From an uncultured bacterium (GTDB lineage: Bacteria > Sysuimicrobiota > Sysuimicrobiia > Sysuimicrobiales > Sysuimicrobiaceae): a stretch of DNA of 64,000 nucleotides. The notes under the pieces were generated by a model that saw nothing but the letters and a program-made list of their open reading frames with translations, ran no database searches and had not been told where the DNA came from. The stretch's first letter is position 1. Each line of letters starts with the position of its first letter. Positions 8,965 through 26,674 of the stretch are shown here, in pieces. Made by a program: the position numbers and the translations under genes. Location: the NCBI GenBank assembly GCA_964437095.1, contig CAYTFH010000015.1, positions 851 to 64,850 of the forward strand, read 5' to 3'.

Positions 8965-9015
8965 GCGCGGTTTGACGGGGCCGGACCAGGGGGCTATCCT
9001 CGACCCGGAGCCGCC

Positions 9016-10302
9016 ATGGACATCCTCTGCGTGGGCACCAGCCACCGCACCGCGCCGGTGCAGGTTCGCGAGCGGGTCGCCTTTCTGGCGGGCCGCGTGG
9101 GGGCGGCGTCCGCCCTGCTCCGGGCCCGGGACGGGCTGCACGAGGCCGTCCTGCTGTCCACCTGCAACCGCACCGAGGCGTACGTGGTGGCCTCCGACCC
9201 ATCCGCGGGCGCACGGTCGGTGTTGGAGTTCTGGTGCGACTACCACGGGCTGGACGGCGCGGAGGTGGAGCCGTACGTGTACAACCTGTCGGGTACGGAC
9301 GCGGTCCGGCACCTGTTCCGGGTGGCCGCGGGGTTGGACTCCATGATGGTAGGCGAGCCCCAGATCCTCGGACAGGTGCGGGAGGCCTTCAGCGCAGCCC
9401 GCAGCGCCCACGCCACGGGCCCCCTCCTGGACGCCCTGTTCCGCCACGCCATCGCCACGGGCCGGAGGGTCCGGCAGCGCACGGGCATCGAGCGCGGTTC
9501 CCTTTCGGTGCCCGCGGCCGCGGTGACCCTAGCCCGCCAGCTCCTGGGCGGTCTCGCGGGCCGCCGGGTGCTGGTCCTGGGCGCGGGCGAGATGGCCGAG
9601 CTCACCGTCCGTCACCTCGTGGAGGCGGGCTGCGGGACGGTGGTGGTCTGTAACCGCACCCTGGAGCACGCCCGCCCCCTGGCGCAGCGGCTGGGCGGGG
9701 TGGCCGTGCGGTTCGACGAGCTGTCCGCCTCCCTGCGGGAAGCGGACATCCTGGTGACCTCCACCGCGGCCCCCCACCCCGTGGTGGAGCCGGAGCTGGT
9801 GGCGCCCGCGGTGGCGGGGCGGCGGGAGCCGTTGGTGATCGTGGACATCGCGGTGCCCCGGGACGTGCACCCGGCGGTGGGCGAGCTGCCGGGGGTACGG
9901 CTGTTCAACGTGGACGACCTGGAGGCCGTGAGCCAGGCCACACGCCAGGCGCGCCAGGCCGAGATCGCGCAGGCGGAGGCCATCGTGGCGGAGGAGACCG
10001 AGCGGTTCTCCGCTTGGCTGCGCTCCCTGAGGGTGGTCCCCCTCATCACCGCCCTCCGCTCTCGGGCGGAGGCGGTGGTGGAGGAAGAGTGGCGGCGGGC
10101 CCTGCCGCGCCTGCGCCACCTCCCGCAGGAGGACCAGGAGGTGGTGCGGGCTGTGCTGCAGGCCGTGGTGAACCGGCTCTTGCACGGCCCCATCGTGCGC
10201 CTCAAGGAGATCGCACGGCGCGAGGAGGCGGTGTACGTGGAGGCCGCCCGCTCCCTGCTCGGCGTGGACGAGGCGGCCGCGGAGTCCGAAGCCGGCCGTT
10301 GA
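9016..10302 (+). CDS. hemA: glutamyl-tRNA reductase
   Basis: LSTCNRTEAYV active-site Cys motif, NAD-binding GAGEMA. Confidence 0.9.
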   Translation: MDILCVGTSHRTAPVQVRERVAFLAGRVGAASALLRARDGLHEAVLLSTCNRTEAYVVASDPSAGARSVLEFWCDYHGLDGAEVEPYVYNLSGTDAVRHLFRVAAGLDSMMVGEPQILGQVREAFSAARSAHATGPLLDALFRHAIATGRRVRQRTGIERGSLSVPAAAVTLARQLLGGLAGRRVLVLGAGEMAELTVRHLVEAGCGTVVVCNRTLEHARPLAQRLGGVAVRFDELSASLREADILVTSTAAPHPVVEPELVAPAVAGRREPLVIVDIAVPRDVHPAVGELPGVRLFNVDDLEAVSQATRQARQAEIAQAEAIVAEETERFSAWLRSLRVVPLITALRSRAEAVVEEEWRRALPRLRHLPQEDQEVVRAVLQAVVNRLLHGPIVRLKEIARREEAVYVEAARSLLGVDEAAAESEAGR

Positions 10303-11210
10303 CCCTCCGCGTCGGGACCCGGACCAGTTCCTTGAGCCGCCAGCAGACGGATTGGGTCCTGCAGCGTCTGCGGGAGCACGACCCCCGCCTGCGCTTCGAG
10401 GTGCTGCCCATCCGCACCGCGGGCGACCGATCCCGTCGGCCCATCCCCCAGCTGGGCGGGACCGGGTGGTTCACCAAGGAGCTGGAGCGGGCCCTCCTGG
10501 GGGGTGCGGTGGACCTGGTGGTGCACAGCCTCAAGGACCTGCCCACGGCACCAACCCCGGGCCTGGTGGTGGCCGCGGTGCCTGTGCGGGAGGATCCCAG
10601 GGACGCCCTGGTGGGTCCGTGGCCGGGCCTGGACCGGCTGCCCGCGGAGGCTAGGGTGGGGACCTCCAGCCCCCGGCGGAGGGCGCAGCTTCTGGCGTAC
10701 CGCAGGGACCTTCGGATCCTGCCTCTGCGCGGCAACGTGGACACGCGCCTCAAAAAAGTCGCCGCGGGAGAGGTGGACGCGGCCGTGGTGGCCGCGGCGG
10801 GGTTGTTGCGGGGCGGGTGGCGGGACCACATCCGGCAGTACGTGGACCCCGACATCCTGCTGCCGGCCCCGGGGCAGGGGGCCCTGACGGTGCAGGTGCG
10901 GGAGGGCGACCGGAGCTTCGTGGAGCTGGTGGGTGTCCTGGACCACCCGCCCACCCGGGCCGCGGTGGAGTCGGAGCGAGCCTTCCTGAGGGGCCTGGGG
11001 GGCGGGTGCACGGTGCCCGCGGCGGCCCTGGGCACGGTGCAGGGAGACCGGCTGCGCCTGCGGGTGCGGGTTCTGTCCGAGGACGGAAGCCGGCAGGTTT
11101 CCGCGGTGCGGGAAGGCCCGCTGGTAGACGCGGAAAGGCTCGGCCGGGAGGCGGCGGAGGAGGTCCGCCCGTTCCTGGCCCTCATGGGAGCCGGGCCGTG
11201 GCGGGGGTAG
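10299..11210 (+). CDS. hemC: hydroxymethylbilane synthase (porphobilinogen deaminase)
   Basis: RVGTRTSSLSRQQT N-terminus, GGGCTVP cofactor loop; TTG start overlapping hemA stop. Confidence 0.85.
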   Translation: MTLRVGTRTSSLSRQQTDWVLQRLREHDPRLRFEVLPIRTAGDRSRRPIPQLGGTGWFTKELERALLGGAVDLVVHSLKDLPTAPTPGLVVAAVPVREDPRDALVGPWPGLDRLPAEARVGTSSPRRRAQLLAYRRDLRILPLRGNVDTRLKKVAAGEVDAAVVAAAGLLRGGWRDHIRQYVDPDILLPAPGQGALTVQVREGDRSFVELVGVLDHPPTRAAVESERAFLRGLGGGCTVPAAALGTVQGDRLRLRVRVLSEDGSRQVSAVREGPLVDAERLGREAAEEVRPFLALMGAGPWRG

Positions 11211-11983
11211 CGAGCCAGCCGTTGCGGGGCCGGCGGGTGCTGGTGACCCGCCCGCGCCACCAGGCGGAGGACCTTCGGGCGCGGCTGGAAGCCCTGGGGG
11301 CGGAGGTGTACGCGGTACCCGTGATCCAGATCCTGCCACCCGAAGACCCAGAGCCGCTGAAGCAGGCCGCGGGTCGCCTGGAGAGCTACCGGTGGGTGGT
11401 GTTCACCAGCCGCAACGGGGCTGAGTCCTTCGCCCGCGCGGCGGGCAGGCCCGCCCTGCCCAGCTCCACGCGGGTCGCGTGCATCGGGCCCGCCACCGCG
11501 CGGGCAGTCCGGCAGCTCCTGGGCTGGCCGGTGCACCTGCAGCCGCGGGCGTACGTGGCGGAGGCCCTGGTGGACGCCTTCCGGGAGGCGGGGGTCCAAG
11601 GGGCTGCGGTGCTGCTGGTGCGGGCGCAGGAAGCTCGCGACACCCTCCCGGAGGGGCTGCGGGCGTGGGGTGCGCGGGTGGACGTGGTGGCCGCCTACCG
11701 CACCCTGCCCGCGTACAATGAAGCCGAGCGGCTCCAGGACGTGTTGCGCCGCGGCGTGGACCTGGCGACCTTCGCCAGCCCCTCCGCGGTGCGGGCGGCG
11801 GTGCAGCTGTGCGGGGAGCTGGAGGTGCTGCGGGCCGTCCCCGCGGCGTGCATCGGCCCGGTGACCGCCGCGGCGGCGGAGCACCTGGGCCTTCGGGTGG
11901 TGGCGGTGGCGGAAGACTTCACCCAGCAGGGTTTGGTGGAAGCCGTGGTCCGCACCCTGACGGGAGGGGAGGGAGGACGGTGA
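11198..11983 (+). CDS. hemD: uroporphyrinogen-III synthase
   Basis: RVLVTRP...VVFTSRNG HemD pattern; start overlaps hemC 3' end (GTG at 11198 or 11207). Confidence 0.75.
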   Translation: MAGVASQPLRGRRVLVTRPRHQAEDLRARLEALGAEVYAVPVIQILPPEDPEPLKQAAGRLESYRWVVFTSRNGAESFARAAGRPALPSSTRVACIGPATARAVRQLLGWPVHLQPRAYVAEALVDAFREAGVQGAAVLLVRAQEARDTLPEGLRAWGARVDVVAAYRTLPAYNEAERLQDVLRRGVDLATFASPSAVRAAVQLCGELEVLRAVPAACIGPVTAAAAEHLGLRVVAVAEDFTQQGLVEAVVRTLTGGEGGR

Positions 11984-12963
11984 GCTTTCCCGCGTTCCGC
12001 AGCCGGCGCCTGCGGCGCACGGAGGCGCTGCGGCGGCTGTCCCAGGAGGTGGACCTGCTCCCCCGCCACTTCGTGGCACCCCTGTTCGTCAAGGAGGGGA
12101 TCTCGCAGCCCGTCCCCATCCCGTCGTTGCCCGGCCAGGTCCAGCACACGGTGTCCAGCGTGGTGGAGGAAGTGGGCGAGCTGGTGGACGCAGGGGTGGC
12201 CGCGGTGATCCTGTTCGGCATCCCCGCCCGCAAGGACCCCCTGGGCAGCGGGGCGTGGGACGACGGCGGGGTCGTACAGCAGGCCCTGCGGGCCCTGCGG
12301 TCGGAGTTCGAGGACCGCGTGGTGCTGGTGGCCGACCTGTGCTTGTGCGAGTACACCGACCACGGCCACTGCGGGGTGCTGGCGGACGGCCCCGAGACCG
12401 TGGACAACGACCGCACCCTGGAACTGTACGGGACGGTGGCCGTAACCCAGGCCCGGGCGGGTGCGGACGTGGTCGCGCCCAGCGGGGTCATGGACGGCCA
12501 GGTGGCGGCTATCCGGCGGGCCCTGGATGAGGCGGGGTTCCATCAGGTGGCCATCCTCAGCTACGCGGCCAAGTTCGCCTCCGCCTTCTACGGCCCCTTC
12601 CGCGAAGCGGCGGAGTCCGCGCCCCGCTTCGGCCACCGGCGGGCCTACCAGCTGCCCCCGGGGGGCTTGCGGGCCGCCCTGCGCCGTGTGGCGCAGGACG
12701 TGGCCGAGGGCGCGGACGCGGTGATGGTGAAGCCGGCCCTCCCGTACCTGGACGTGCTGCGGGAGGTCCGGCAGAGGTTCGACGTGCCGGTGGCGGCGTA
12801 CTGTGTGAGCGGGGAGTACGCCATGGTCCACGCCGCCGCCCAGCGGGGTTGGCTGGACCTTCCCGCGGCCATGCTGGAGGTGCTCACGTCCGTCCGCCGT
12901 GCGGGCGCGGATTGGATCCTCACGTACTTCGCCAAGGAGGCCGCAAGGCTCCTGAGGGGATGA
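11980..12963 (+). CDS. hemB: porphobilinogen synthase (ALA dehydratase)
   Basis: Cys-rich metal site DLCLCEYTDHGHCG; GTGA overlap with hemD. Confidence 0.9.
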   Translation: MSFPAFRSRRLRRTEALRRLSQEVDLLPRHFVAPLFVKEGISQPVPIPSLPGQVQHTVSSVVEEVGELVDAGVAAVILFGIPARKDPLGSGAWDDGGVVQQALRALRSEFEDRVVLVADLCLCEYTDHGHCGVLADGPETVDNDRTLELYGTVAVTQARAGADVVAPSGVMDGQVAAIRRALDEAGFHQVAILSYAAKFASAFYGPFREAAESAPRFGHRRAYQLPPGGLRAALRRVAQDVAEGADAVMVKPALPYLDVLREVRQRFDVPVAAYCVSGEYAMVHAAAQRGWLDLPAAMLEVLTSVRRAGADWILTYFAKEAARLLRG

Positions 12964-14240
12964 GCCGTTCGGAGGAGCTCTTCCGGCGGGCGCGCCGCGT
13001 GATGCCCGGCGGGGTCAGCAGCCCCGTGCGGGCGTTCCGCGCGGTGGGAGGCACACCGCCGTTCTTGGTCCGGGGCGAGGGCGCGTACGTCACCGACGCG
13101 GACGGCCGGCGGTACGTGGACTGCGTCATGTCCTGGGGCGCCCTGCTGCTGGGCCACGCCCACCCCCAGGTGGTGCAGGCGGCCCAGCACGCGGTGGCGG
13201 AGGGGAGCAGCTTCGGAGCGCCCACCCCGTGGGAGGTGGAGTTCTGCGAGCGGATTCGGGCCGCGGTCCCCTCCGTGGAGGTGGTGCGGCTGGTGAGCTC
13301 GGGCACGGAGGCGGTGATGAGCGCCCTGCGGGTGGCGCGGGCCGCCACGGGCCGCGAAGGGGTGGTGAAGTTCGACGGCGGCTACCACGGCCACGTGGAC
13401 AGCCTCCTGGTGCGGGCGGGCTCGGGGGTTGCCACCTTCGACCTGCCCGACAGCGCCGGAGTGCCTCCTCCCGCGGTGCGGTCCACCTTCTCCCTGCCGT
13501 ACAACGACCTGGACTCCGTGCGCCGCTTCTTCCAGGCGCGGGGGGAGGAGGTGGCGGCGGTGCTGGTGGAGCCCGTGGCGGGCAACATGGGCACGGTTGC
13601 CCCGGAGCCGGGCTTCCTGCAGGGGCTGCGGGAACTTTCGGAGCGGTGGGGTGCCCTGCTGGTGTTCGACGAGGTCATCACCGGGTTCCGCTTCCACTAC
13701 GGCGCGGCCCAAGACCTGTTCGGGGTGCCGCCGGACCTCACGTGCTTGGGGAAGGTCATCGGCGGCGGCTTCCCCCTGGCCGCGTACGGAGGGCGGGAGG
13801 ACCTGATGCGCCTGGTGGCCCCCGACGGCCCCGTCTACCAGGCGGGCACCCTGTCCGGAAACCCCGTGGCGGTGCGGGCGGGGCTCGCCACCCTGGCGGC
13901 ACTGGAAGACGGGGACGTGTACCGGCGGTTGGAAGCATTGGGTCAGGCTCTGGAAGAGGGGCTCCGGGACGCGGCGCGTCAGGCGGGAGTCCCGGCGTGC
14001 GTGAACCGGGTGGGATCCATGCTCACGGTGTTCTTCGGCGTGGAGCGGGTGACGGACTACGACAGCGCGAGGAGGTGCGACACCGCGGCGTTCGCGCGGT
14101 TCTTCCACGCCATGCTGGCCCGGGGCACCTACCTCCCCCCGTCCCCCTTCGAGGCGTGGTTCCTTTCCGCGGCCCACGGAGAGGAAGAAGTCGAGCAGAT
14201 CCTCCGGGCGGCCCGCGAGGCCTTCCGGGAGGCCGCATGA
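12960..14240 (+). CDS. hemL: glutamate-1-semialdehyde 2,1-aminomutase
   Basis: class-III aminotransferase fold, N-terminal MPGGVSSPVRAF; ATGA overlap with hemB. Confidence 0.9.
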   Translation: MSRSEELFRRARRVMPGGVSSPVRAFRAVGGTPPFLVRGEGAYVTDADGRRYVDCVMSWGALLLGHAHPQVVQAAQHAVAEGSSFGAPTPWEVEFCERIRAAVPSVEVVRLVSSGTEAVMSALRVARAATGREGVVKFDGGYHGHVDSLLVRAGSGVATFDLPDSAGVPPPAVRSTFSLPYNDLDSVRRFFQARGEEVAAVLVEPVAGNMGTVAPEPGFLQGLRELSERWGALLVFDEVITGFRFHYGAAQDLFGVPPDLTCLGKVIGGGFPLAAYGGREDLMRLVAPDGPVYQAGTLSGNPVAVRAGLATLAALEDGDVYRRLEALGQALEEGLRDAARQAGVPACVNRVGSMLTVFFGVERVTDYDSARRCDTAAFARFFHAMLARGTYLPPSPFEAWFLSAAHGEEEVEQILRAAREAFREAA

Positions 14241-14974
14241 CCCGCGTCCTGGTGGTCATGCCCCTGTACAACGAGGAGGCCACCCTGCAGGAGGTGCTGG
14301 AAGCGGTGCTGCGGTACGCACCTCCCGGTGCGGACGTGCTGGTGGTGGACGACGGCTCCACGGACCGGTCCGCCGAGATCCTGGCCCGGTTCCCGCAGGT
14401 GCGGGTGATCCGGCACCCCGAAAACCGGGGGTACGGGGCGTCCCTGATCGACGGCTTCCGCTACGCCCTGGAGCACGGCTACGACGTGGTGGTGACCATG
14501 GACTGCGACGCTCAGCACGAACCGTACCTCATCCCCGACCTGCTGAGCGCCCTGGAGGGCGCGGACATCGTGTCCGGGAGCCGCTACCTGCCCGGCTCCT
14601 CTCGAGGCCAGGAACCTCCTCCGGACCGGCTGCGCATCAACCGGGAGGTGACCCAGCGGGTGAACACCCTCACGGGCTACCAGCTCACCGACGCCTTCTG
14701 CGGGTTCAAGGCGTACCGGGCCGAGGCGCTGCGGAAGCTGCAGCTGGACGAGCCGTCGTACGGCATGCCCTTGCAGGTGTGGCTGCAGGCGGCGCGCTGG
14801 GGCTTGCGGGTGCGGGAGATCCCCATCGGCCGCATCTACAAGAACCCCCACCGCCGCTTCTGGGGCGGGCTGGACGACCCCGAGGTGCGGCTCCGGTACT
14901 ACCTGGACGTGCTGGAGCGGGAGGCGGCCCGCTGGCTCCAGCGGGCGGCGCCCTCCGGGGAGGGAGGGCCGTGA
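14237..14974 (+). CDS. family-2 glycosyltransferase (DPM1/GtrB-like)
   Basis: VVDDGSTD and DCD(xQH) GT-A motifs; ATGA overlap with hemL. Confidence 0.8.
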   Translation: MTRVLVVMPLYNEEATLQEVLEAVLRYAPPGADVLVVDDGSTDRSAEILARFPQVRVIRHPENRGYGASLIDGFRYALEHGYDVVVTMDCDAQHEPYLIPDLLSALEGADIVSGSRYLPGSSRGQEPPPDRLRINREVTQRVNTLTGYQLTDAFCGFKAYRAEALRKLQLDEPSYGMPLQVWLQAARWGLRVREIPIGRIYKNPHRRFWGGLDDPEVRLRYYLDVLEREAARWLQRAAPSGEGGP

Positions 14975-15651
14975 AGTCGGTCCTGGTCCTCGCCCCCCAC
15001 CCCGACGACGCGGAGATCGCCATGGGCGGCACCATGGCCGCGCTGGTGGCCCAGGGCTGGCGGGTGGTGGTGTGCGACCTCACGGACGGGGAGCCCACGC
15101 CCGTGGGCACCCCCGAACGCCGTAGGCAGGAAGCCGCCCAGGCCGCCCGCATCCTGGGCGTGGAGCGCCGCATCCTCGACCTGCCCAACCGGTTCCTCCT
15201 GGACGAGGTACAGGCGCGGAAGAAGGTGGCCGCGGTGATCCGGGAGGTGCGGCCGGACTGGCTGTTCGTGCCGTACTGGGAGGACGCCCACCCCGACCAC
15301 GTGCAGGCCGCGTCCCTGTGCGAGGCGGCTCGGTTCTACGCCAAGCTCACCCACACCGACATCCCCGGAGACCCCCACTACCCACGCCGGGTGGTGCACT
15401 TCTTCTCCACCCACTACCGCATGGTCCGCCGTCCGTCCTTCGTGTTCGACATCAGCGACACCCTGGAGCGCAAGATGGAGAGCCTGCGCGCCTACCAGAG
15501 CCAGTTCGGACCGGAGCGGGGGAACTCGTGGGTGCTGGACGCGGTGCGGGACGCCAACCGCTACTTCGGCCGCCTGGTGGGCGTGCAGTACGGCGAGCCC
15601 TTCCTCCTGCGGGAGGAGCTGGGGGTGCGCAGCCTGGAGGCGCTGGTGTGA
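14971..15651 (+). CDS. PIG-L/LmbE family N-acetylglucosaminyl deacetylase
   Basis: APHPDDAEIAMGG zinc-site motif; GTGA overlap with GT2 gene. Confidence 0.8.
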   Translation: MKSVLVLAPHPDDAEIAMGGTMAALVAQGWRVVVCDLTDGEPTPVGTPERRRQEAAQAARILGVERRILDLPNRFLLDEVQARKKVAAVIREVRPDWLFVPYWEDAHPDHVQAASLCEAARFYAKLTHTDIPGDPHYPRRVVHFFSTHYRMVRRPSFVFDISDTLERKMESLRAYQSQFGPERGNSWVLDAVRDANRYFGRLVGVQYGEPFLLREELGVRSLEALV

Positions 15652-17183
15652 CGGACCTGCAAATCCCCACGCGGCACGGGGAGGTGGCGTGCGTCCCGGA
15701 GCTGGGCCGGTGGCTGGAGGTGGCGGAAGCCAACGCCCGGCGGCTGGAGCAGGCGCAGATCCGGGGCCAACCCCTGGGGGCGGTGCGGGCGCAGGCCCGC
15801 CAGGAACTGGTGGCCTGCAGCCGCCAGCTGTTGGGCCGCTGGGGCCTGCCCGCGCCCGAGGTGTCCGCAGGACCGTGGGTGGCCACCGGCCACCAGCCGA
15901 CCCCGTTCCACCCGGGCATCTGGGTGAAGACGTGGGGCGTGGACGCGTGCTGCGCCCGCGGGGCGACGGGCCTGTACGTGGTGGTGGACTCTGACGAGTG
16001 CGAGCGGTGGACGGTGCGGGTCCCGCGGCGGGACGGCTCCCTGCAGGTGGCGGAGCGGGTGCTGGTCTCCTGCGGAGCCGAGGTACCCTTCGAGGCGGCT
16101 CCACCGCCGGAGGAGGCGGCCTGGCGGGGGTTCTGCGCCCAGCTGTCCCAGGACCTGGCAACCCTGCGGCTGCCCGAGCTGGTGGAGCGTCTATCCCGGG
16201 CGGAACGGGCGGGGCTGGAGAGCGTACGGTGCGCTCGGAACCTGGGCGAGTTCGGAGCCGCGCTGCGCAGGCGGCTGGAACTGGGCTGCGGGTCCGTGCG
16301 GTACCTGGAGGTGACCGTGTCGCAACTGGCGGGCACCGGCGCGTTCCGCCACTTCGCGGGCTGGATCGCGCAGCACGCGGAGCGCTTCTGGGAGTGCCAC
16401 AACCGGGCCCTGGACCAGTACCGCCGGGAGGAAGGTCTGAGGTCTGCCGCCCAGCCCTTCCCCAACCTGCGGAAAGAGGGCGACCTGGTGGAGCTGCCCT
16501 TCTGGCTCGTGTGGGGCGGGCGCCGGCGTCCGGTGTGGGCGCAGACGGGGAGGGGTGACCCCGTGCTGGTGTGCGACGGAAGGCCTGTGGGCACGGTTCA
16601 CGACCTGCCCCGGGAGCTGAGGCCGCGGGCCCTGACCCTCACCCTGTTCTTGCGGCTGGTGGTGTGCGACCTGTTCGTTCACGGCCTGGGCGGCGCCCGC
16701 TACGACCGCGTCACGGACCGGGTCATGCACGAGTTTTTCGGCACCCCGCCGCCCCCCTTCGCGGTCCTCACCGCCACCTTCCACCTGCCCCTGGCCCGCC
16801 ACCGGGACCCCCAGGCGGAGTACGCTGCCGCCCACCGGAAGTGGCTGGATCTGCACCACAACCCGGACCGCTACCTGCCCCGGGACGGCGAGGTGGCAGC
16901 ATTGGTGGAGGAAAAGTGGCGGTGCATCCAGGCCCTGAACGCCCCGGACCTGCCCCGCCGCAGCCGCCGGGAGCTCACCCAGCGCATCCGGGCCATCAAC
17001 GATTGCCTCCGGCAGCACCTCCAGGACGTGATCCGCGAGGCGGAAGCGGAGCTTGCGGCGTTGCGCCGCGAGGTGGAAGAGCACCAGGTGGCCACCGACC
17101 GCGGCTACCCGTTCTTCCTGTTCGAGCCCGAGGAGGTGCGGGCGTCCGTGGCGATGGCGGAGGGAGTGCGGTGCGGCCGGTAG
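15648..17183 (+). CDS. hypothetical soluble 511-aa protein, possibly distant BshC-like (speculative)
   Basis: GTG overlapping LmbE stop; coiled-coil C-terminus; weak GHQP...HPG resemblance to BshC GGQQ region; no TM segments. Confidence 0.5.
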   Translation: MTDLQIPTRHGEVACVPELGRWLEVAEANARRLEQAQIRGQPLGAVRAQARQELVACSRQLLGRWGLPAPEVSAGPWVATGHQPTPFHPGIWVKTWGVDACCARGATGLYVVVDSDECERWTVRVPRRDGSLQVAERVLVSCGAEVPFEAAPPPEEAAWRGFCAQLSQDLATLRLPELVERLSRAERAGLESVRCARNLGEFGAALRRRLELGCGSVRYLEVTVSQLAGTGAFRHFAGWIAQHAERFWECHNRALDQYRREEGLRSAAQPFPNLRKEGDLVELPFWLVWGGRRRPVWAQTGRGDPVLVCDGRPVGTVHDLPRELRPRALTLTLFLRLVVCDLFVHGLGGARYDRVTDRVMHEFFGTPPPPFAVLTATFHLPLARHRDPQAEYAAAHRKWLDLHHNPDRYLPRDGEVAALVEEKWRCIQALNAPDLPRRSRRELTQRIRAINDCLRQHLQDVIREAEAELAALRREVEEHQVATDRGYPFFLFEPEEVRASVAMAEGVRCGR

Positions 17184-17848
17184 ACCCCGTGGTCACGGAG
17201 GGCCTGGGACGTCGCTTCGGCCCCGTGGTGGCTCTCGAGAACGTGTGGCTGCGGGTCCACCAGGGCCAGGGCTTGCTGCTGGTGGGGCCCAACGGCTCGG
17301 GCAAGACCACCCTGCTGCGGGTGCTGGCCACCGCCTTGCGGCCCAGCCCGGGAAGGGCGTGGGTCTGCGGGTACGACGTGACTTCCGAGGGCCACCGGGT
17401 GCGGGAGGTCTGCGCGTACCTGGGTACTTCCCCGGGCCTGTACGGGGCCCTCACGGGGTGGGAGAACCTCTGCCTGGCCGCGGACCTGTGCGGCCGGCCC
17501 CGCGCCGCGGCCCGGGACGCGCTGGCGTGGGCCGGCATGGAGTCGGTGGCGGGTAGGCCCGTGGGGACGTACAGCCTGGGAATGCGGCGGCGGCTGGCGC
17601 TGGCCCGGGTGTACCTACAGCAGGCCCGCGTGCTGCTGCTGGACGAGCCCTTCGTGGGCCTGGACGACCCGGGCGTGCGCCTGGTGCGGGAACTCGTGGA
17701 AGACACAAAGCGCCGTGGCGGCGCCGTGGTGCTGGCCACCCACGACCGGGACCGGGCCCTCGGACTGTGCGAGGCCGTGGCGGAGCTGCAGTCGGGCCGT
17801 CTGCGACCCGCCCTTGCGGGTTTGGCCGCGGTGAGGGCCGAGCGGTGA
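17171..17848 (+). CDS. ccmA: haem exporter ATPase CcmA (ABC)
   Basis: Walker A GPNGSGKTT; degenerate signature YSLGMRRRLALAR; followed by ccmBCDE. Confidence 0.8.
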   Translation: MRPVDPVVTEGLGRRFGPVVALENVWLRVHQGQGLLLVGPNGSGKTTLLRVLATALRPSPGRAWVCGYDVTSEGHRVREVCAYLGTSPGLYGALTGWENLCLAADLCGRPRAAARDALAWAGMESVAGRPVGTYSLGMRRRLALARVYLQQARVLLLDEPFVGLDDPGVRLVRELVEDTKRRGGAVVLATHDRDRALGLCEAVAELQSGRLRPALAGLAAVRAER

Positions 17849-18498
17849 GGGCGTGGCGGCGGGCGGTGGCCCTGGCCCGCAAGGATCTGCTGCTGGAGTG
17901 GCGGGTGCGGGACGCCCTGCTGCCCGCGGGCACCTTCGGCCTTGCGGTGCTGCTGGTGCTGGGCTTGGCCTCCGGCGGAGGCCCCGAGGCCGCGGCACCC
18001 GTGCTGTGGGTGTCCGTGTCCTTGGCCGCGGTGCTGGCCGTGGGCCGCACCACCGAACGGGAAGGGGAAGAGGGGACCTTGGAGGCGCTGCTGTTGTACC
18101 CGGGAAGCCGGGAAGACCTGTTCTGGGGCAAGTGGATGGCCCTGGCGAGCCTGGTGGCGCTGCTGGCCGCGGCCCTGTGGTGCGCGCAGGCGGTCTTGTT
18201 CGGCGCGGGCGTGCGGGCGTGGGGACCCTTCGCCCTCACCGTCCTGCTGGCCGCGTCGGGCCTGGGGGCGGTGGGCACCTTGCTGGCGGCGGTGCTGTGG
18301 AGCGTGCGGGCTTCCCGCCTGTTGCTGCCCCTGTTGTTCCTGCCCACGGCGCTGCCGGTGCTGCTGGCGGGCGTGCGCCTCACGGAGGCCGCGTCGCTGG
18401 GGGCCCCCTCGGGCCCCTGGCTGGGGGTGCTGGCCGCGTTCGACCTTCTGTTCTTGCTGGTGGGACCCGCGCTGTTCGAGGCGGTGGTGGAGGGCTAA
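17845..18498 (+). CDS. ccmB: haem exporter membrane protein CcmB
   Basis: 6-TM ABC-2 permease at the ccmB position; GTGA overlap with ccmA. Confidence 0.75.
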   Translation: MRAWRRAVALARKDLLLEWRVRDALLPAGTFGLAVLLVLGLASGGGPEAAAPVLWVSVSLAAVLAVGRTTEREGEEGTLEALLLYPGSREDLFWGKWMALASLVALLAAALWCAQAVLFGAGVRAWGPFALTVLLAASGLGAVGTLLAAVLWSVRASRLLLPLLFLPTALPVLLAGVRLTEAASLGAPSGPWLGVLAAFDLLFLLVGPALFEAVVEG

Positions 18499-19137
18499 GT
18501 GAGAGCGTTCCTGACCGGCGGGACCATGGCCCTGCTGTGCGCGGGGCTGTTCCTGGGCCTGTGGGCGTCCCCGCCGGACGCGTACCAGGGAGAGTACGTG
18601 CGGATCATGTACGTGCACGTGCCCGCCGCCCTGGCCGCGTACGCCGCGGCGGCGGTGGCGTGCGCCACCGGAGCCCTGTACCTGTGGCGGCGGCGGGTAG
18701 ACTACGACCTCGTGTCGCACGCGGGTGCGGAGCTAGCGGCGTTGTTCAGCGCGCTGACGTTGCTCACGGGGATGCTGTGGGGAAGGCCCGTGTGGGGGGT
18801 CTGGTGGGCCTGGGACGCGCGCCTGGTGAGCACCGCGGTGCTGTTCTTCCTGTACGTGGGGTCGCTGCTGGTGCGGGGGCTGGCGGAGGACCCCGACCGC
18901 GGGCGCAGGCTCGGCGCGGCGGTGGCGGTGGTGGCGTTCCTGGACGTCCCCCTGGTGCACTACTCGGTGGTGTGGTTCCGCACCCTGCACCAGGGGCCTT
19001 CCATCAGCCTGCAGGGTGTGAGGATCGCGCCCGAACTCCTCCTGCCGCTCTCGGTGAACGTGGTGGCCTACCTGAGCCTGCTCAGCTGGCTGCTCGTGGA
19101 GCGCAGCCGCCTCGCTCGGGCGGAGGCACAACCGTGA
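18499..19137 (+). CDS. ccmC: haem exporter protein CcmC
   Basis: WWD domain WGVWWAWDARL plus conserved His-containing loops. Confidence 0.85.
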   Translation: MRAFLTGGTMALLCAGLFLGLWASPPDAYQGEYVRIMYVHVPAALAAYAAAAVACATGALYLWRRRVDYDLVSHAGAELAALFSALTLLTGMLWGRPVWGVWWAWDARLVSTAVLFFLYVGSLLVRGLAEDPDRGRRLGAAVAVVAFLDVPLVHYSVVWFRTLHQGPSISLQGVRIAPELLLPLSVNVVAYLSLLSWLLVERSRLARAEAQP

Positions 19138-19262
19138 GCCCATGGGTGTGGGTGGCGTCCGCTTACGGGTGCGCGGCCCTGCTGGTGGGCGGATACGTGT
19201 GGTGGCTGCGGCGCAGGCTGCGCCGCGCCGCCTCGCGCGGGAACCAGGAGGTGGAGGGGTGA
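19134..19262 (+). CDS. ccmD: haem exporter protein CcmD (42 aa)
   Basis: single TM plus RRRLRR tail; GTGA overlaps at both ends. Confidence 0.6.
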   Translation: MSPWVWVASAYGCAALLVGGYVWWLRRRLRRAASRGNQEVEG

Positions 19263-19642
19263 AGCGTCTGCGCCTGGTGGCTGCGGTGGCGGTGGTGGTG
19301 GGCGCCCTGGGCTACGTGGTGGCCGGTGGCCTGCGGGAGTCGGTGGTGTACTACGTCACCCCCACGGAGCTGCGCTCCGGCAGCGTGGACGTGCGTCGGC
19401 CCGTGCGGGTGGGAGGGCAGGTGGTACCCGGGTCCCTCCACCGGGACGGCGGCACGGGGGAGCTGCGCTTCGTCCTCTCCGACGGCCGCACCACCCTGCC
19501 CGTGCGGTTCCGCGGGGACGTGGCGGGGCTGTTGGTCCAAGGTCAGGGTGCGGTGGTGGAGGGCCGGCTGGACCCGGACGGATCCTTACGGGCCCACACG
19601 GTGGTGGTCAAGCACTCCGAGGAGTACCGGCCGCCGCGCTAG
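19259..19642 (+). CDS. ccmE: cytochrome c maturation haem chaperone CcmE
   Basis: N-terminal TM, OB-fold, C-terminal VKHSEEY haem-binding His/Tyr motif. Confidence 0.8.
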   Translation: MKRLRLVAAVAVVVGALGYVVAGGLRESVVYYVTPTELRSGSVDVRRPVRVGGQVVPGSLHRDGGTGELRFVLSDGRTTLPVRFRGDVAGLLVQGQGAVVEGRLDPDGSLRAHTVVVKHSEEYRPPR

Positions 19643-19800
19643 CGGCTTGACGCGGGGGCAGTCCGGTGCGGAAAATCGTGGCCGGACCTTCACGGCGGGG
19701 GCCCGGCGGGGCCCTTGCGCGTTTTTCGGGCTCGCGAGAGAGGAGTCCGGGTCCCGGAAGTCAAAAACACACGCCGAGTTCACGGGTTTCAGGAGGCACC

Positions 19801-20719: not shown

Positions 20720-21364
20720 GTGAACCGGAGGACGTTCCTCAAGCTCCTGAGCGCAGTGCCCGCGTTGGGGGCCCTGGGCGCGTTCCTGGCCCCGGTGCTG
20801 CGGTACCTCAAGCCGAACCTGGAAGCCGGCTTGGGCGTCCCCAAGGGTAAGGTGGTGCCGGACCTGGCCGAGGGCGACCTCCCCAAGGGGGAAGCCCTGC
20901 CCATCGCCACCCTGGAGGAGCTGCGGGAGCCGTGGTCCAGCAAGTTCTTCGTGTTCACGCAGAAGTACCCCCAGTACACGCCCGAGCAGGCGAAGGCGGC
21001 TACGGTACCCGGGGTGGCCGTCAAGCTGCCGTGGAAGCTGTCGTTCCCGGGCTACAAGGGGGGCAAGGAGCCCACGGACATCGTGGTCTTCTCCCGCATC
21101 TGTCCGCACCTGGGCTGCATCTTCAACTACGTGCCCAACTGGCGGGAGGTGACCGCGGGCTACGGCGGGTACGTGCCGCCGGAGGACCGCCGCCACGGGC
21201 TGATGGCCTGCCCGTGCCACCTGTCCATCTATGACCCCGCGGACCGGGAACTGCCCGGTCGGGTGCTGTCGGGCCCCGCGCCCCGCCCGCCCCGGTTCTT
21301 CACCTACGAGATCCGCGACGGGGTCATCGTGGTGACCGGCGCGGAGCCCGGCGGGATCGCCTGA
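20720..21364 (+). CDS. Rieske [2Fe-2S] subunit of a cytochrome bc/b6f-type complex
   Basis: Tat motif RRTFLK; CPHLGC...CPCHLS Rieske boxes. Confidence 0.9.
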   Translation: MNRRTFLKLLSAVPALGALGAFLAPVLRYLKPNLEAGLGVPKGKVVPDLAEGDLPKGEALPIATLEELREPWSSKFFVFTQKYPQYTPEQAKAATVPGVAVKLPWKLSFPGYKGGKEPTDIVVFSRICPHLGCIFNYVPNWREVTAGYGGYVPPEDRRHGLMACPCHLSIYDPADRELPGRVLSGPAPRPPRFFTYEIRDGVIVVTGAEPGGIA

Positions 21365-21376
21365 GGGGGCTTCGGG

Positions 21377-22525
21377 ATGTGGGACCGGCTGCGGGAGTGG
21401 TTCCGGGAGCGCAAGGAGAAGCTGGACCTGTTCGACGAGACCCGCGTGGACCGGCAGGACAACCCCCTCTACATCCTCGGGCAGATCGTGTACTTCTCCT
21501 GGATCGCGGTGGTGGTGAGCGGCATCCTGCTCATGATCTGGTACGAGCCCACCGCCCACGGCGCGTACAACTCCATCCTCCGGATCCAGCGGGAGATCCC
21601 CTTCGGCTGGCTCATCCGCGGCGTCCACAAGTACGGCGCGGACATGCTCATCCTGGCCATCACCCTCCGCATCTACCGGATGTACTTCCTCGGCGAGTAC
21701 AAGCGGCCCCACGAGCTGTCGTGGATGATCCTGTTCGGGTCCCTGGTCCTGGCCATGATCTCCGGCCTCACGGGCTACCTGCTCATCTGGAACCAGCGGG
21801 CCTTCTGGGCCGCCAAGGTGGTGCTCACCGTGGCGGTGTACCTGGACCAGTTGCCCCTGGTCGGCCAGACGCGGTTCGGCAGCGCCATCGCCTTCGCCTT
21901 CCTCGGTGGGCCCGCGGAGGGGCAGGGGACCCTCACCCGCTTCTACGCCATCCACTTCGGCATCTCCGCCCTGTTGCTGGTGGCCACGGAGGTGTACTTC
22001 TACTTCACCCGTAGGCGCCGGTTCGTGCTGTCGCCTGCGGCCCTGGTGATCCTCGCCCTCATGCTGGTGGTCACCAGCTACGTGTTCCCCGCGGAGATGG
22101 GCCGGCGCGCCGATCCCAACCGCACCCCGCTGCCCATCCTGTCGGACTGGTACTTCCTGGCCCTGTACCAGTACGTGAAGTACACCCCGCCCCTGTGGGC
22201 GGGCCTGGGGCCGGGCCTGCTCATCGCGTACGGCATGCTGGTCCCGTTCCTGGACCGCAGCAAGGGCCGCCGGCCCTCGGAGCGGCCCTTCTTCACCGTG
22301 GTGGGCGTGATGGCCCTCACCTACTTCCTGGTGTTTACCGCCCTGATCATGTTCAACATCGCGGTGATCGGCCGGGACCCGCACGTGGTGCTGCTGGTCA
22401 CCGCGGCCACCCTGACCTTGGGCCTGGCGCTGGAGCTGCGCTACCGGAAGCGCAGGAAGCTGGCGGAGGCCGCCGCTCCATCTCCCGCGCCGCGGCCCGC
22501 CCCGGCCCGGGCCACGGCGGGGTGA
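21377..22525 (+). CDS. cytochrome b (b6 fused to subunit IV), atypical: n-side haem ligands absent
   Basis: [14 protein letters not shown] and TLTRFYAIH align to PetB, but the second His of each pair is Arg and Tyr; SDWYF subunit-IV motif. Confidence 0.85.
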   Translation: [382 protein letters not shown]

Positions 22526-22529
22526 AGCG

Positions 22530-22793
22530 GTGGACGTGGCCCGGTTCGCTGCGTCCTTTCTGGCCGCGGTGCTGAGCCTGCACGAGACCGTGCGGGCCCT
22601 CCGGGGGGCGTGGCTGCACCCGGCGCCCGATCGGTGGCTGCTGGCGGCGGGCTGGCTGGTCCTGGCAGCGGCCTCCGGGCTGTGGGCGGGGTACGTGGTG
22701 TACGCGGCGGACCGCCGGTCCGGACGCGTCCGCCGCCGGGTGGCTCTGTACGAACGGTGGATGGCGGCGCAGCGGGGAGGGAGGTGGCCGTGA
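22530..22793 (+). CDS. small two-TM membrane protein (possible bc-complex small subunit)
   Basis: GTG start 5 nt after cyt b stop; two hydrophobic helices. Confidence 0.45.
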   Translation: MDVARFAASFLAAVLSLHETVRALRGAWLHPAPDRWLLAAGWLVLAAASGLWAGYVVYAADRRSGRVRRRVALYERWMAAQRGGRWP

Positions 22794-22984
22794 ACGGACC
22801 CGGCCGGTACCTGGCCCTGGCGGGCTTCCTGGCGGCGGTGGGCCTGGTGTGCGTGGCCCTCATGGTGTACGGCGAGTGGACCGACCGGCGCCTGGTGGCC
22901 TCCGGCGCCGTGGGCGTGCTCCTGGTGCTGTACGCGGCCATCGTGGTCCTGTTCCGGAAGGCGCACCTGACCGCGGAGGAGTGA
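22790..22984 (+). CDS. small two-TM membrane protein (64 aa)
   Basis: GTGA overlap with preceding ORF, GGGGAGGGAGG RBS; two TM helices. Confidence 0.45.
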   Translation: MNGPGRYLALAGFLAAVGLVCVALMVYGEWTDRRLVASGAVGVLLVLYAAIVVLFRKAHLTAEE

Positions 22985-22985
22985 G

Positions 22986-24161
22986 GTGTACCGGCGGATC
23001 CTGAGGGGACTGCAGAGCGCCACCCTGCGGGTGGACGTGTGGATCAACGGGGTCCTGCCGCAGGATTTCAACCCCCTGTACTACACGGGCGGTCTGAGCA
23101 ACCTGTTCCTGACCATCCTGGTGGTCTCCGGGATCCTCATCTTCCTGTACTACGAGCCCAGCCTGGAGGGGGCGTACGCCTCCGTGGAGTTCCTGACCCG
23201 GGACGTGCCCTACGGGGTGGTGTTCCGCGGCATCCACCGGTACGCCGCGGACGCCTACCTGGTGGCCATCCTCCTGCACCTGTTCCGGAACTGGTTCACC
23301 GACCGCTACCGGGAGGCCCGGGACAGCCAGTGGCTGTCGGGGATGTTCCTCCTGGTGGTGTCGGCCTTCACGGGCTTCACCGGGTACCTACTGGTGTGGG
23401 ACGAGCGGGCGCAGCTGCTGAGTAGCCTCACGGTGCAGGCCCTGCGGTCGGTGCCCCTGGTCGGGCCCTGGCTGGCCCAGGTGTTCCTGGGCGGCCCGGG
23501 GGTGAGCGACACCACCCTGCCGCGCTTCCTCTTCCTGCACATCGGGCCGGCCATGACCCTGTACGTGCTCCTGTGGTGGCACTACGTCCGGCTGCGCCAC
23601 CCCAAGATCTGGCCGCCCGCGGTGTGGGTCCTGTTCAGCCTGGGATTGCTGTTCATCCTGGCGTCCGCCCTGCCTGCGGCCAGCGGCCGGCCCGCGCAGC
23701 CCGGCGCTTCCCCCGAGGGGTTCCCGGTGGACTGGTTCTTCCTGTGGCCGTACGTGCTGGCCCGTTGGATGGCCCCGGGTTGGGCCCTGGCCCTGGTGGC
23801 GGCCCTGGTGGCGTACGGCATGGTGATCCCCTACACCCTGCGGGAGACCCCGGAGGAACGGGAGGTGCGGGCCCTGGGGCAGGCGGTGGTGGTGGAGGAG
23901 AACTGCACCGGCTGCGATCTGTGCTACTACGACTGCCCGTACAACGCCATCTACATGGTGCCCAGCCCCTACCCGGGCAAGAGCCGGGCCGCGGCCAACC
24001 GCAAGCTGCTGGCCGTGGTGGTGGACTCCCGGTGCGTGGAGTGCGGCATCTGCATCGGCGCATGCCCCTTCGAGGCTCTGGAACTTCCGAGGATGTTGGA
24101 CAAGGACGTGCAGGAACGCATCCGGCGGGGGGCCCAGGCACCGGCCCCCGCCACCCCGTGA
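22986..24161 (+). CDS. cytochrome b (b6 + subunit IV-like) fused to a C-terminal 2x[4Fe-4S] ferredoxin domain
   Basis: all four haem His retained (IHRYAADAYLVAILLH; LHIGPAMTLYVLLWWH); CTGCDLCYYDCP and CVECGICIGACP motifs. Confidence 0.85.
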   Translation: MYRRILRGLQSATLRVDVWINGVLPQDFNPLYYTGGLSNLFLTILVVSGILIFLYYEPSLEGAYASVEFLTRDVPYGVVFRGIHRYAADAYLVAILLHLFRNWFTDRYREARDSQWLSGMFLLVVSAFTGFTGYLLVWDERAQLLSSLTVQALRSVPLVGPWLAQVFLGGPGVSDTTLPRFLFLHIGPAMTLYVLLWWHYVRLRHPKIWPPAVWVLFSLGLLFILASALPAASGRPAQPGASPEGFPVDWFFLWPYVLARWMAPGWALALVAALVAYGMVIPYTLRETPEEREVRALGQAVVVEENCTGCDLCYYDCPYNAIYMVPSPYPGKSRAAANRKLLAVVVDSRCVECGICIGACPFEALELPRMLDKDVQERIRRGAQAPAPATP

Positions 24162-24170
24162 GGCAGGACC

Positions 24171-24596
24171 ATGGCCACCGTACCGGAGCGAACTCCCAGC
24201 CCTGACAGCCCGCCCCGGGTGGTGGGTTTCCTGTGCGACTGGGCGGTGCGCAGCGAGGGATTGCTGAACCCCGACGACACCCTGGTGGGCATGCCTCACG
24301 TGACCGTGATCCGGGTGCCGTGTTCGGGGTTCGTGAAGCCCAGCTGGCTGGAGCTGGCCCTCCGCAGCGGCGCCGCGGGGACCTTCGTGTGCGGTTGCCC
24401 CATGGGGGACTGCCTGAACCGGGAGGGCAACTGGATCATCGAGGACCGCATCGACCAGCTCCGCAAGCGGCTCAGCCGTCAGAAGGTGGACCCCGATCGG
24501 GTGGCCTTCTTCGCCTACGGCCTGCACGACCGGGAAGCCTTCCTGCAAGCGGTGGCGGAGTTCGTGGAGCGGCTGCGGTCGGGAGGGAAGCGGTGA
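24171..24596 (+). CDS. MvhD/FlpD-like iron-sulfur protein (hydrogenase delta-subunit family), standalone
   Basis: FLCDW...VIRVPCSG...VCGCPMGDCLNREGN matches the FlpD Cys pattern (5 of 6 Cys). Confidence 0.75.
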   Translation: MATVPERTPSPDSPPRVVGFLCDWAVRSEGLLNPDDTLVGMPHVTVIRVPCSGFVKPSWLELALRSGAAGTFVCGCPMGDCLNREGNWIIEDRIDQLRKRLSRQKVDPDRVAFFAYGLHDREAFLQAVAEFVERLRSGGKR

Positions 24597-26115: not shown

Positions 26116-26125
26116 GAGGCGTCGG

Positions 26126-26587
26126 GTGAGGGACCCTGTGATCCCTGTGGTGCGGTTCGTGGTGGCCGCGGTGCTGTGCGGTTTTCTGGCCACGGTGCTG
26201 CTGCCGAGGCTGGACCCCGCCGTCCGACCCGCCCGCGCTGCGCCCCTCGGGCCGCAGATCCAGCGGGGCCGGTGGGTGTACGTCCGTGAGGGCTGTGTGG
26301 CCTGCCACACCCAGCAGGTGCGGGCGGTGGAGGCCCGGTTCGGGGTGGTGCGGGGTCAAGGGGACGTGGGAGAAGCTTCCGGGCCCGCCCAGTACGCGGG
26401 ACAGAACCCCGTTCTGCTGGGGTCCTTGCGGCTGGGCCCGGACCTATCCCACGTGGGGGCCCGCAGCCAGGACCCCAACCAGCTGCGGTCGTTGCTGCGG
26501 TCCGGCAGCGTGGGGATGCCGCCGGTCCGGTACCTTTCGGAGTCCGAGCTGTCGGACCTGGTGGCGTACCTGTTAAGCCTGCGCTAG
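26126..26587 (+). CDS. cbb3-type oxidase subunit II (CcoO/FixO)-like monohaem cytochrome c
   Basis: VYVREGCVACHTQQVR and RLGPDLSHVG match CcoO signatures. Confidence 0.8.
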   Translation: MRDPVIPVVRFVVAAVLCGFLATVLLPRLDPAVRPARAAPLGPQIQRGRWVYVREGCVACHTQQVRAVEARFGVVRGQGDVGEASGPAQYAGQNPVLLGSLRLGPDLSHVGARSQDPNQLRSLLRSGSVGMPPVRYLSESELSDLVAYLLSLR

Positions 26588-26623
26588 GACCATGTCCGAG
26601 AAAGGTTCGCGGTTGACGGAATT

Positions 26624-26664: not shown

Positions 26665-26674
26665 AGGAGGAACC

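Follow-up and report, generated by a model that had tools for sequence, protein, structure and literature searches.

Introduction

Redox balance, detoxification and the handling of metals all depend heavily on low-molecular-weight (LMW) thiols (glutathione, mycothiol and bacillithiol). The alpha linkage of bacillithiol is made by the retaining family-4 glycosyltransferase (GT4) BshA, and the BshC reaction of that pathway has never been reconstituted in vitro, its activated cysteine donor being unsettled (PMC5790435). Several large phyla have no LMW thiol that is documented or predicted (PMC6282198), and actinobacteria other than actinomycetes lack the mycothiol pathway (PMC4255298). Here we describe a three-gene cassette that is a concrete and widely distributed candidate for this gap. 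The cassette was found in a 64-kb stretch of DNA from an uncultured bacterium of the Sysuimicrobiota (contig CAYTFH010000015.1; the whole stretch is called the window), where it occupies positions 14237-17183 of the + strand and encodes a family-2 glycosyltransferase (GT2), an LmbE-type deacetylase (LmbE) and a protein of 511 amino acids (aa), referred to as X.

A first-pass annotation of this DNA had placed the trio between hemL and ccmA with start-to-stop overlaps throughout, and that layout was confirmed (ATGA, GTGA and GTGA; Table 1). It had also proposed that the trio follows the logic of bacillithiol and mycothiol synthesis with a GT2 as its glycosyltransferase. In our assessment there is about an even chance that GT2, LmbE and X are a stand-alone set of translationally coupled genes for the synthesis of a small, soluble N-aminoacyl-glucosamine glycoside, most likely a cysteine-bearing LMW thiol of the bacillithiol/mycothiol type. 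No paper was found in the literature that describes the cassette or a "BshC-like" family, also when BshC or LMW thiols in Planctomycetes and bacillithiol in Armatimonadota were looked for.

Conservation of the cassette

Gene neighborhoods were compared at 87 independent loci from several phyla by targeted phmmer and hidden Markov model (HMM) counts. These counts replaced an unbiased clustering of neighbors, which was noisy from antisense open reading frames (ORFs) in high-GC DNA. In 82 of the 87 loci, a GT2 orthologue was encoded upstream of X, with the same orientation and no other gene than LmbE between them, and the order GT2-LmbE-X was present in 53. Since that order recurs in so many independent loci of several phyla, the arrangement is far beyond chance. 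The conserved core is GT2 and X, because GT2 adjoins X in 82 loci and LmbE in only 53; LmbE or an acetyltransferase of the GNAT type is the lineage-dependent third member. X was alone at 5 loci, one of which was cut by a contig end. The cassette is a mobile three-gene module, and it spanned the Armatimonadota, Actinomycetota, Firmicutes, Nitrospinota/Nitrospirae, Atribacterota and Planctomycetota.

The genes next to the cassette differed by lineage. An Eis-like acetyltransferase of about 420 aa (Acetyltransf_9 plus SCP2_2) accompanied X in 13 planctomycete loci and was directly after X in 12 of them. These loci were L087 (9128-13115), L055, L056, L058, L064, L066, L069, L072, L075, L077, L078, L083 and L086; in L087, the acetyltransferase gene starts inside the 3' end of X. 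Twenty Coriobacteriia-like loci (including L002, L004 and L005) had the fixed five-gene order OsmC-GT2-LmbE-X-ferredoxin. The ferredoxin there is a 58-aa protein of the 2x[4Fe-4S] type, and wider synteny in these loci took in a NiFe hydrogenase small subunit, a DUF2249 protein, a cyt-b5-like protein and an RnfC-like protein. A peroxiredoxin of the Bcp/PrxQ type, with the motif FYPKDNTPGCTTEAC, was encoded directly after X in L007 (9549-10007), L018 and L019; in these three trio loci, which are without ccm, the gene for this cytoplasmic peroxiredoxin lies between X and cytochrome bc genes. Neighbors were unrelated in loci from Planctomycetota, Nitrospinota, Nitrospirae, Atribacterota and Firmicutes.

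An exhaustive HMMER search for X returned 3,912 clusters at 50% identity (E up to 1e-3), with 2,330 at E up to 1e-30, where an earlier search had given 258 relatives. At least 575 matching stretches were found in a one-genome-per-species collection. The lineages with X were the Armatimonadota, the candidate genera Sysuimicrobium and Fervidifonticultor, Coriobacteriia and other Actinomycetota, Firmicutes metagenome-assembled genomes, Nitrospinota, Nitrospirae, Atribacterota, Brocadiia and many Planctomycetota. Among the last is a named strain with a complete chromosome, Lacipirellula limnantheis I41. Wherever source names were inspected, the relatives of X were called "hypothetical protein". 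An apparent LmbE-X fusion, the 543-aa metagenome entry P0036 from JGI (annotated "N-acetylglucosamine malate deacetylase 1"), was rejected as a frameshifted assembly in which two gene fragments are joined via out-of-frame stretches.

The deacetylase and the glycosyltransferase

LmbE was matched by PF02585 (PIG-L; E 5.9e-28) and scored 206.8 bits with the BshB1 equivalog model TIGR04001 (cutoff 182.5; model positions 4-226 of 226), which bears out its first assignment to the LmbE/PIG-L family. Its score with the MshB model TIGR03445 was 40 bits. PDB matches were 6P2T (E 2.8e-42), 2IXD (E 1.4e-37) and 1UAN (E 5.4e-37), and identity to 6P2T, a solved BshB1 or N-acetylglucosamine (GlcNAc)-malate deacetylase, was 42% over 211 columns. 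The zinc-site motifs HPDD and HPDH are both present, and AHPDDAEIAMGG and EDAHPDH align with the corresponding motifs of 6P2T and 2IXD. LmbE has no transmembrane anchor, whether N-terminal or elsewhere (maximal KD19 1.33). These matches indicate a BshB1-type zinc deacetylase by family; its substrate may differ from GlcNAc-alpha-L-malate because the glycosyltransferase encoded upstream belongs to another family. Automatic annotation will give the LmbE gene the name "BshB1" even where a genome's other cassette genes do not encode canonical bacillithiol enzymes, and such labels do not imply a canonical bacillithiol pathway.

GT2 was matched by PF00535 (E 3.1e-34) and by GT2-family Pfam models alone; no Glycos_transf_1 or Glyco_trans_4 match was seen in Pfam, so that a GT4 enzyme of GT-B fold was not indicated. 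The best NCBIfam models were the dolichyl-phosphate (Dol-P) hexose transferase (78 bits) and PpgS (72 bits), with PgfS, ArnC and AglJ also matched, and all of these scores were far below the equivalog cutoffs. The nearest solved relative was the P. furiosus Dol-P-mannose synthase 5MLZ (E 1.9e-18), followed by ArnC and GtrB, and the earlier description of the enzyme as DPM1-like was therefore apt. GT2 belongs to the DPM1/ArnC/GtrB-like branch by its GT-A catalytic domain and a DxD followed by QH/D-x-P, seen as MDCDAQHEP. Its motifs in the window are DCD(A)QHEP, SGSRY, TDAFCGFKAYR and a C-terminal RIYxxxxRxFxGGLDD...YY. Across the family, DCDGQHEP, DIVSGSRYL and LTDAFCGFKAYR are conserved, and the family's own C-terminal motif, RIYxDxxRxFGGxLDD...YY, replaces the usual C-terminal segment. 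No hydrophobic segment was found in GT2 (maximal KD19 0.94, under the usual transmembrane threshold). The 81 members of the orthologue family are 235-260 aa long and likewise without transmembrane segments, with a median maximal KD19 of 1.1. Membrane association was not indicated, as there are no C-terminal transmembrane helices and no conserved small membrane gene adjoins GT2. A single-sequence AlphaFold model of GT2 was unusable (predicted local distance difference test [pLDDT] 51).

The relatives of GT2 bring up a lipid-linked aminosugar pathway, in which GT2 would make polyprenyl-phosphate-GlcNAc at the membrane surface in the manner of DPM1, PpgS, ArnC, GacI and CsbB, LmbE would deacetylate it, X would aminoacylate the resulting lipid-linked glucosamine, and the product would be flipped outward for an envelope polymer or an extracellular role. 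All of the best characterized matches in NCBIfam and PDB are polyprenyl-phosphate glycosyltransferases, and the DxD-x-QH-x-P signature read in GT2 is typical of that branch. The branch has members without transmembrane segments, such as human DPM1 and mycobacterial PpgS/Ppm1. However, in none of the clades examined was a flippase, a GT-C transferase or a small membrane partner conserved beside the cassette, the GT2 family lacks even clearly hydrophobic segments and carries its private motif in place of the usual C-terminal segment, and the deacetylase is of a type that acts on a soluble substrate and has no N-terminal anchor. We judge the lipid-linked pathway unlikely.

Protein X and its predicted fold

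X had no Pfam or NCBIfam match at E up to 1, which agrees with its first description as a protein without a known family; nor was it assigned to an unrelated domain, whereas such an assignment, along with a canonical bshA-bshB-bshC set elsewhere, was what the first-pass annotation had named as telling against its idea. When 33 aligned members were compared with Pfam at E up to 10, PF10079 was not matched and only coiled-coil-type noise (FliT and similar) was returned. No tRNA-synthetase family was matched in Pfam or NCBIfam, and homology to cysteinyl-tRNA synthetase (CysRS), as for MshC, was not found. By direct reading, HIGH and KMSKS are absent as such, and only a loosely HIGH-like H-x5-HPG is present. 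The invariant motifs of X are TGHQPxxxHPGxWxK, VVDSD, RRxxE, RPxALTLTxFxRxxxxDLFxHGxGGxxYDxxTD, HNPD and RxYPF, and invariant residues include H82, Q83, H88, G90, D114, D116 and H345. The single hydrophobic stretch in X (KD19 1.81, residue 329) is the conserved core motif, which lies within the folded model; with the maxima of GT2 and LmbE under the transmembrane threshold, the earlier description of soluble proteins stood.

An AlphaFold2 model of X, made from the 33-sequence alignment, had a pLDDT of 94.8 and a predicted template modeling (TM) score of 0.90, and all 5 of 5 models were at or above a pLDDT of 93.5. A Foldseek search with this predicted model against PDB ranked B. subtilis BshC (4WBD) first (E 3.4e-12, probability 1.0; TM scores 0.52/0.50 over 579 columns), then class-I lysyl-tRNA synthetase (E 2.4e-5) and then many tyrosyl-tRNA synthetases. 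Long C-terminal helices cover residues 437-482. X is predicted by this model to have a BshC-like fold, with a Rossmann core of the class-I aminoacyl-tRNA synthetase type and a C-terminal helical hairpin. The structural comparison with BshC and class-I synthetases, which had been put forward as a check, thus gave a positive answer.

The sensitive HMM comparison put forward with it did not. The BshC query was identical in sequence to 4WBD over 539 residues, and the comparison set held 18 sequences, from Bacillaceae only, drawn from the best 120 matches; these true BshC proteins all carry PF10079 and PF24850. A hhalign run of a 301-sequence X alignment against the 18-sequence BshC alignment gave Prob 0.2%, which is not significant. 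A run of the X alignment against the single BshC sequence was not significant, and a PDB profile search with the X alignment returned only weak CarD-type matches (best E 0.049) and did not find 4WBD. In the best hhalign path, TGHQPxLxHPG is opposite GGQQAGLLTGP and VVDSD is opposite AGEDHD; the faint likeness of GHQP...HPG to the GGQQ region of BshC that had been remarked on is therefore aligned there, in a path that is itself statistically insignificant. By direct reading, X and BshC both have an RP and, 16-20 residues on, a G-x-G-(G/E)-x-x-Y loop. The RP...HGxGGxxY of X parallels the RP...AGPGExxY of BshC, and the motif parallels fall in the same chain order.

Genomic setting of the trio

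The window has 72% G+C and 73 called genes, 72 of which are on the + strand, and its features are listed in Table 1. Cumulative GC skew climbs monotonically over all 64 kb, consistent with a long, strongly co-oriented leading-strand segment. A promoter scan gave 2 sites where 0.3 would be expected. The promoter-like site before hemA and the hairpin with T run after ccmE suggest that hemA to ccmE is one transcription unit bounded by them. The hem genes encode glutamyl-tRNA reductase to uroporphyrinogen III synthase, plus glutamate-1-semialdehyde aminomutase. The hemA, hemB and hemL proteins match the corresponding genes of a relative locus, L001, in which hemC and hemD are syntenic between the others and hemA/C/D/B/L carry the Pfam domains GlutR, Porphobil_deam, HEM4, ALAD and Aminotran_3. 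The start of ccmA is either the GTG at 17171, which overlaps X by 13 nucleotides (nt), or the GTG at 17189, which leaves a gap of 5 nt; an independent gene call on an identical contig (L088) chose the former. CcmA scored 140.8 bits with TIGR01189 (cutoff 131.6), the Pfam domains CcmB, Cytochrom_C_asm and CcmE were found in the cluster, and a motif scan of the 73 called genes found WGVWWAWD in ccmC only.

Table 1. Positions of the trio and of other features in the window
Feature	Positions	Strand	Remarks
Sigma-70-like promoter match	8972..9000	+	16 nt upstream of hemA; TTGACG-17-TATCCT, 9/12 positions; consensus match only
hemA, hemC, hemD, hemB, hemL	9016..14240	+	Consecutive, ends overlapping or abutting
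GT2	14237..14974	+	245 aa; ATG overlaps hemL stop as ATGA
LmbE	14971..15651	+	226 aa; GTGA overlap with GT2
X	15648..17183	+	511 aa; GTGA overlap with LmbE
ccmA, ccmB, ccmC, (ccmD), ccmE	17171..19642	+	Heme export and chaperone half of System I
G+C-rich hairpin and T run	19695..19718	+	53 nt past ccmE stop; 10-pair stem, 8 GC pairs; tail GCGTTTTTCG; consensus match only
Respiratory cluster	20720..24596		Rieske protein, cytochrome b, two small ORFs, second cytochrome b-ferredoxin fusion, FlpD-like protein
Cytochrome b with C-terminal 2x[4Fe-4S] ferredoxin domain	22986..24161		
FlpD/MvhD-like protein	24219..24596		Follows the cytochrome b-ferredoxin fusion
cbb3-like oxidase set	24724..27214		COX1-family subunit (83.8 bits), FixO-like mono-heme subunit, further cytochrome c
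trans-Polyprenyl diphosphate synthase	27281..28273		After the cbb3-like oxidase set
Sulfur-carrier type cysteine biosynthesis cluster	52719..55787		36 kb from cassette

The first-pass annotation had raised the hypothesis that the product of the trio is tied to cytochrome c maturation. Such a product would be a dedicated glyco-thiol or glycolipid reductant that replaces the CcmG, CcmH and DsbD proteins, which keep the cysteines of apocytochrome CXXCH motifs reduced. The trio does lie inside an apparent hemACDBL-trio-ccmABC(D)E unit with promoter-like and terminator-like borders. Of the 87 loci, 25 had either ccmABCE or a cytochrome c/Rieske/cytochrome b set beside the trio, and every one of these belonged to the Armatimonadota/Sysuimicrobiota-like clade. 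This link persisted down to approximately 40% identity of X and through rearrangements, ccm being inverted in L023 and absent from L007, L018, L019 and L022; hem genes were often upstream of the trio in Armatimonadota-like loci. As had been noted from the letters alone, CcmG/CcmH thiol-reductant genes are missing from the window: no thioredoxin-like, CcmF or CcmH gene was found by Pfam (genes to 37 kb and ten beyond) or by the motif scan of all 73 genes, the latter scan found no thioredoxin CxxC protein, and Pfam and NCBIfam found no CcmG/CcmH/DsbD-type domain in GT2, LmbE or X. Export of a thiol to the periplasm has a precedent in E. coli CydDC.

However, neither cytochrome nor ccm genes are found near most cassette loci (Coriobacteriia-like, Planctomycetota, Nitrospinota, Atribacterota and Firmicutes), the ccm neighborhood being confined to one clade. 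The trio of L023 is beside ccmABCE-CcmF and a thioredoxin-like (CcmG/ResA-like) protein; because all of these are present together, the trio does not simply stand in for CcmG/H. The window also lacks ccmF, its ccm set is split, and no product-specific exporter is apparent. In L012 and L013, ccmF is right after ccmE; the protein of about 215 aa encoded after CcmF in these two loci has no Pfam match and might be a CcmH substitute. The ccm set of the window is thus just locally incomplete, and ccmF/G/H may be elsewhere in the genome. Taken together, these data make a dedicated role of the cassette in cytochrome c maturation improbable, and we regard the replacement of CcmG/CcmH/DsbD by its product as highly unlikely. 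The hem/ccm placement instead looks like lineage-specific co-expression, with a thiol buffer made along with the respiratory chain.

Downstream of ccmE are genes for a di-heme cytochrome c, a Rieske protein and cytochrome b. The unusual pairing of a cytochrome b-ferredoxin fusion with an FlpD protein is kept in related Armatimonadota-type loci (also L001, L003 and L007). The distant cysteine biosynthesis cluster, for which no link to the cassette was established, encodes a ThiS/CysO-like protein (GG plus an 8-residue tail), an unassigned 294-aa protein, a CysM/CysK-like pyridoxal phosphate enzyme, a Prok-JAB (Mec+-like) protease and an Rrf2-family regulator. A search of the window for second copies of X, LmbE or GT2 and for homologues of the planctomycete GNAT gave none.

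Proposed pathway and implications

In the pathway that we propose, the soluble GT2 would move GlcNAc from uridine diphosphate (UDP)-GlcNAc onto a common small acceptor. Because inversion of the anomeric configuration is a property of GT2 enzymes, a beta linkage is expected here, in contrast to the alpha-linked product of the GT4 enzymes BshA and MshA. LmbE, a BshB1-type zinc deacetylase by family, would strip the N-acetyl group and free the 2-amine. X, with the fold predicted by its model, would then acylate that amine with cysteine or another amino acid. In Planctomycetota, the Eis-like GNAT encoded after X would carry out N-acylation of the newly attached amino acid, a role that MshD has in the mycothiol pathway. 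In the window genome, the cassette would be co-expressed with heme and cytochrome biogenesis because it is inserted in the apparent hemACDBL-...-ccmABC(D)E operon. The first enzyme of the cassette is non-homologous to the known thiol-pathway glycosyltransferases, and the final product is a predicted one.

Of the first-pass interpretation, the analogy with bacillithiol and mycothiol held, and the tie to cytochrome c maturation was not supported. The BshB1 score, the predicted BshC fold, the motif parallels and the recurrence of the module all favor the analogy, as does the lack of a membrane anchor in each of the three proteins, but sequence similarity between X and BshC did not appear. Several further points weigh against a soluble bacillithiol/mycothiol-type product. 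The structural match of X with BshC comes from a predicted model and has a TM score of about 0.5 and a root-mean-square deviation of 9.7 A, and the searches with Pfam (PF10079), NCBIfam, the PDB profiles and hhalign all fell short of significance for that pair. The closest characterized relatives of GT2 all use polyprenyl phosphate acceptors. GT2-X was without LmbE within 10 kb in 29 of the 87 loci, mostly from Planctomycetota. The OsmC association belongs to one clade with extended synteny and is roughly one event, and a disulfide reductase, redoxin or S-transferase was not consistently beside the cassette. Cysteine as the added group and GlcNAc as the donor sugar are both presumptive.

Another scenario is that the cassette makes authentic bacillithiol through non-orthologous displacement, with GT2 making GlcNAc-malate and X being a very divergent BshC. 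A deacetylase that scores as a BshB1 equivalog, with its identity to the GlcNAc-malate deacetylase, and a predicted BshC fold for X are what this scenario would entail. However, an inverting GT2 acting on UDP-alpha-GlcNAc would give the beta-anomer, and bacillithiol is alpha-linked (PMC5790435). X is also unrecognizable to BshC models, and the planctomycete GNAT after X suggests an N-acylated product, unlike bacillithiol. We consider authentic bacillithiol a highly unlikely product.

A thiol of another structure is favored as the product because the only known enzymes with the fold and context of X (BshC and, functionally, MshC) add cysteine and make thiols, because OsmC and Bcp peroxidases adjoin the cassette in two clades, and because the cassette occurs in the non-actinomycete actinobacteria from which the mycothiol pathway is absent (PMC4255298). 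A non-thiol N-acyl- or N-aminoacyl-glucosaminide, such as a compatible solute, a metal-binding metabolite or a secondary-metabolite precursor, would result if X attached a residue other than cysteine. A glycosyltransferase with an LmbE deacetylase is a general module for installing glucosamine, as in the aminoglycoside and teicoplanin pathways. X and BshC conserve different residues, and X may accordingly have another substrate; the 29 loci without LmbE also fit a non-thiol product, and no hint of a redox role comes from the neighbors in Nitrospinota, Atribacterota and Firmicutes. In addition to the fold and the peroxidase neighbors, two observations argue against it: the lineages that carry the cassette have no known LMW thiol (PMC6282198, PMC4255298), and the cassette is a housekeeping-like, single-copy set of three genes that is not within larger secondary-metabolite clusters. 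A non-thiol product seems rather unlikely to us.

A broader proposal, which we make tentatively and at less than even confidence, is that GT2 and X, together with LmbE or a GNAT, make up the LMW-thiol pathway that is missing in Planctomycetota, Armatimonadota, Coriobacteriia-type Actinomycetota, Nitrospinota, Atribacterota and others. Its product would be a chemically new beta-linked cysteinyl-glucosaminide, N-acylated in planctomycetes. This prediction should be testable in culture with L. limnantheis I41. If it is true, the glycosyltransferase step of thiol synthesis is replaceable by an unrelated, inverting enzyme family, and Armatimonadota would co-produce the thiol with heme and c-type cytochromes. 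X, with its HIGH-like H-x5-HPG loop where BshC has GGQQ...GP, may be a conventional ATP-dependent ligase amenable to reconstitution in vitro, and in that case it would offer a handle on the unsolved BshC reaction. The X family would be a second, differently equipped branch of the BshC fold that is not tied to BshC by sequence models, and it may help to resolve the cysteine donor of BshC-type enzymes (PMC5790435).

Comparison with known systems

The initiation of glycosylphosphatidylinositol (GPI) anchors resembles the proposed pathway in that GlcNAc transfer is followed by a PIG-L-family de-N-acetylase. However, PIG-A is a GT4 enzyme that acts on phosphatidylinositol, PIG-L is membrane-anchored, there is no third ligase-like step, and the system is eukaryotic/archaeal. 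Polyprenyl-phosphate aminosugar systems are represented by ArnC/ArnD, PpgS (Rv3631), GacI and CsbB. Their GT2 enzymes belong to the same branch as that of the cassette, and a GT2 followed by de-N-acylation is the logic of ArnC/ArnD. Unlike these pathways, the cassette has a GT2 without a transmembrane domain or membrane partner, no flippase or GT-C transferase nearby, and an LmbE/BshB1-type deacetylase where ArnD is a CE4 enzyme. Its BshC-fold enzyme has no counterpart in them.

Mycothiol synthesis is nearer to the proposed steps, in which a GlcNAc glycoside would be deacetylated by an LmbE enzyme and the amine then acylated with cysteine by a ligase of class-I aminoacyl-tRNA synthetase fold. 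The multi-domain GNAT after X in the planctomycete cassette mirrors the final acetylation by MshD. However, X is not a CysRS paralogue, the glycosyltransferase is a GT2 whereas MshA is a GT4, the deacetylase is nearer BshB1 than MshB, and no inositol-phosphate genes are nearby.

Bacillithiol synthesis by BshABC shares with the cassette the succession of a glycosyltransferase, an LmbE-type deacetylase and a BshC-fold enzyme, all of them soluble. The cassette deacetylase passes the BshB1 cutoff, and BshC is the best structural match of X. In contrast, the cassette glycosyltransferase is an inverting, DPM1-like GT2 of GT-A fold and BshA a retaining GT4 of GT-B fold, and X has its own invariant motifs and no detectable similarity to PF10079/PF24850 or to NCBIfam BshC. 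The cassette is found in different taxa and is one overlapping unit, whereas bshC in Bacillus is unlinked from bshA-bshB1 (PMC5790435). The cassette thus works like BshABC or MshABCD without being a member of either set, and only its deacetylase qualifies, as a BshB1.

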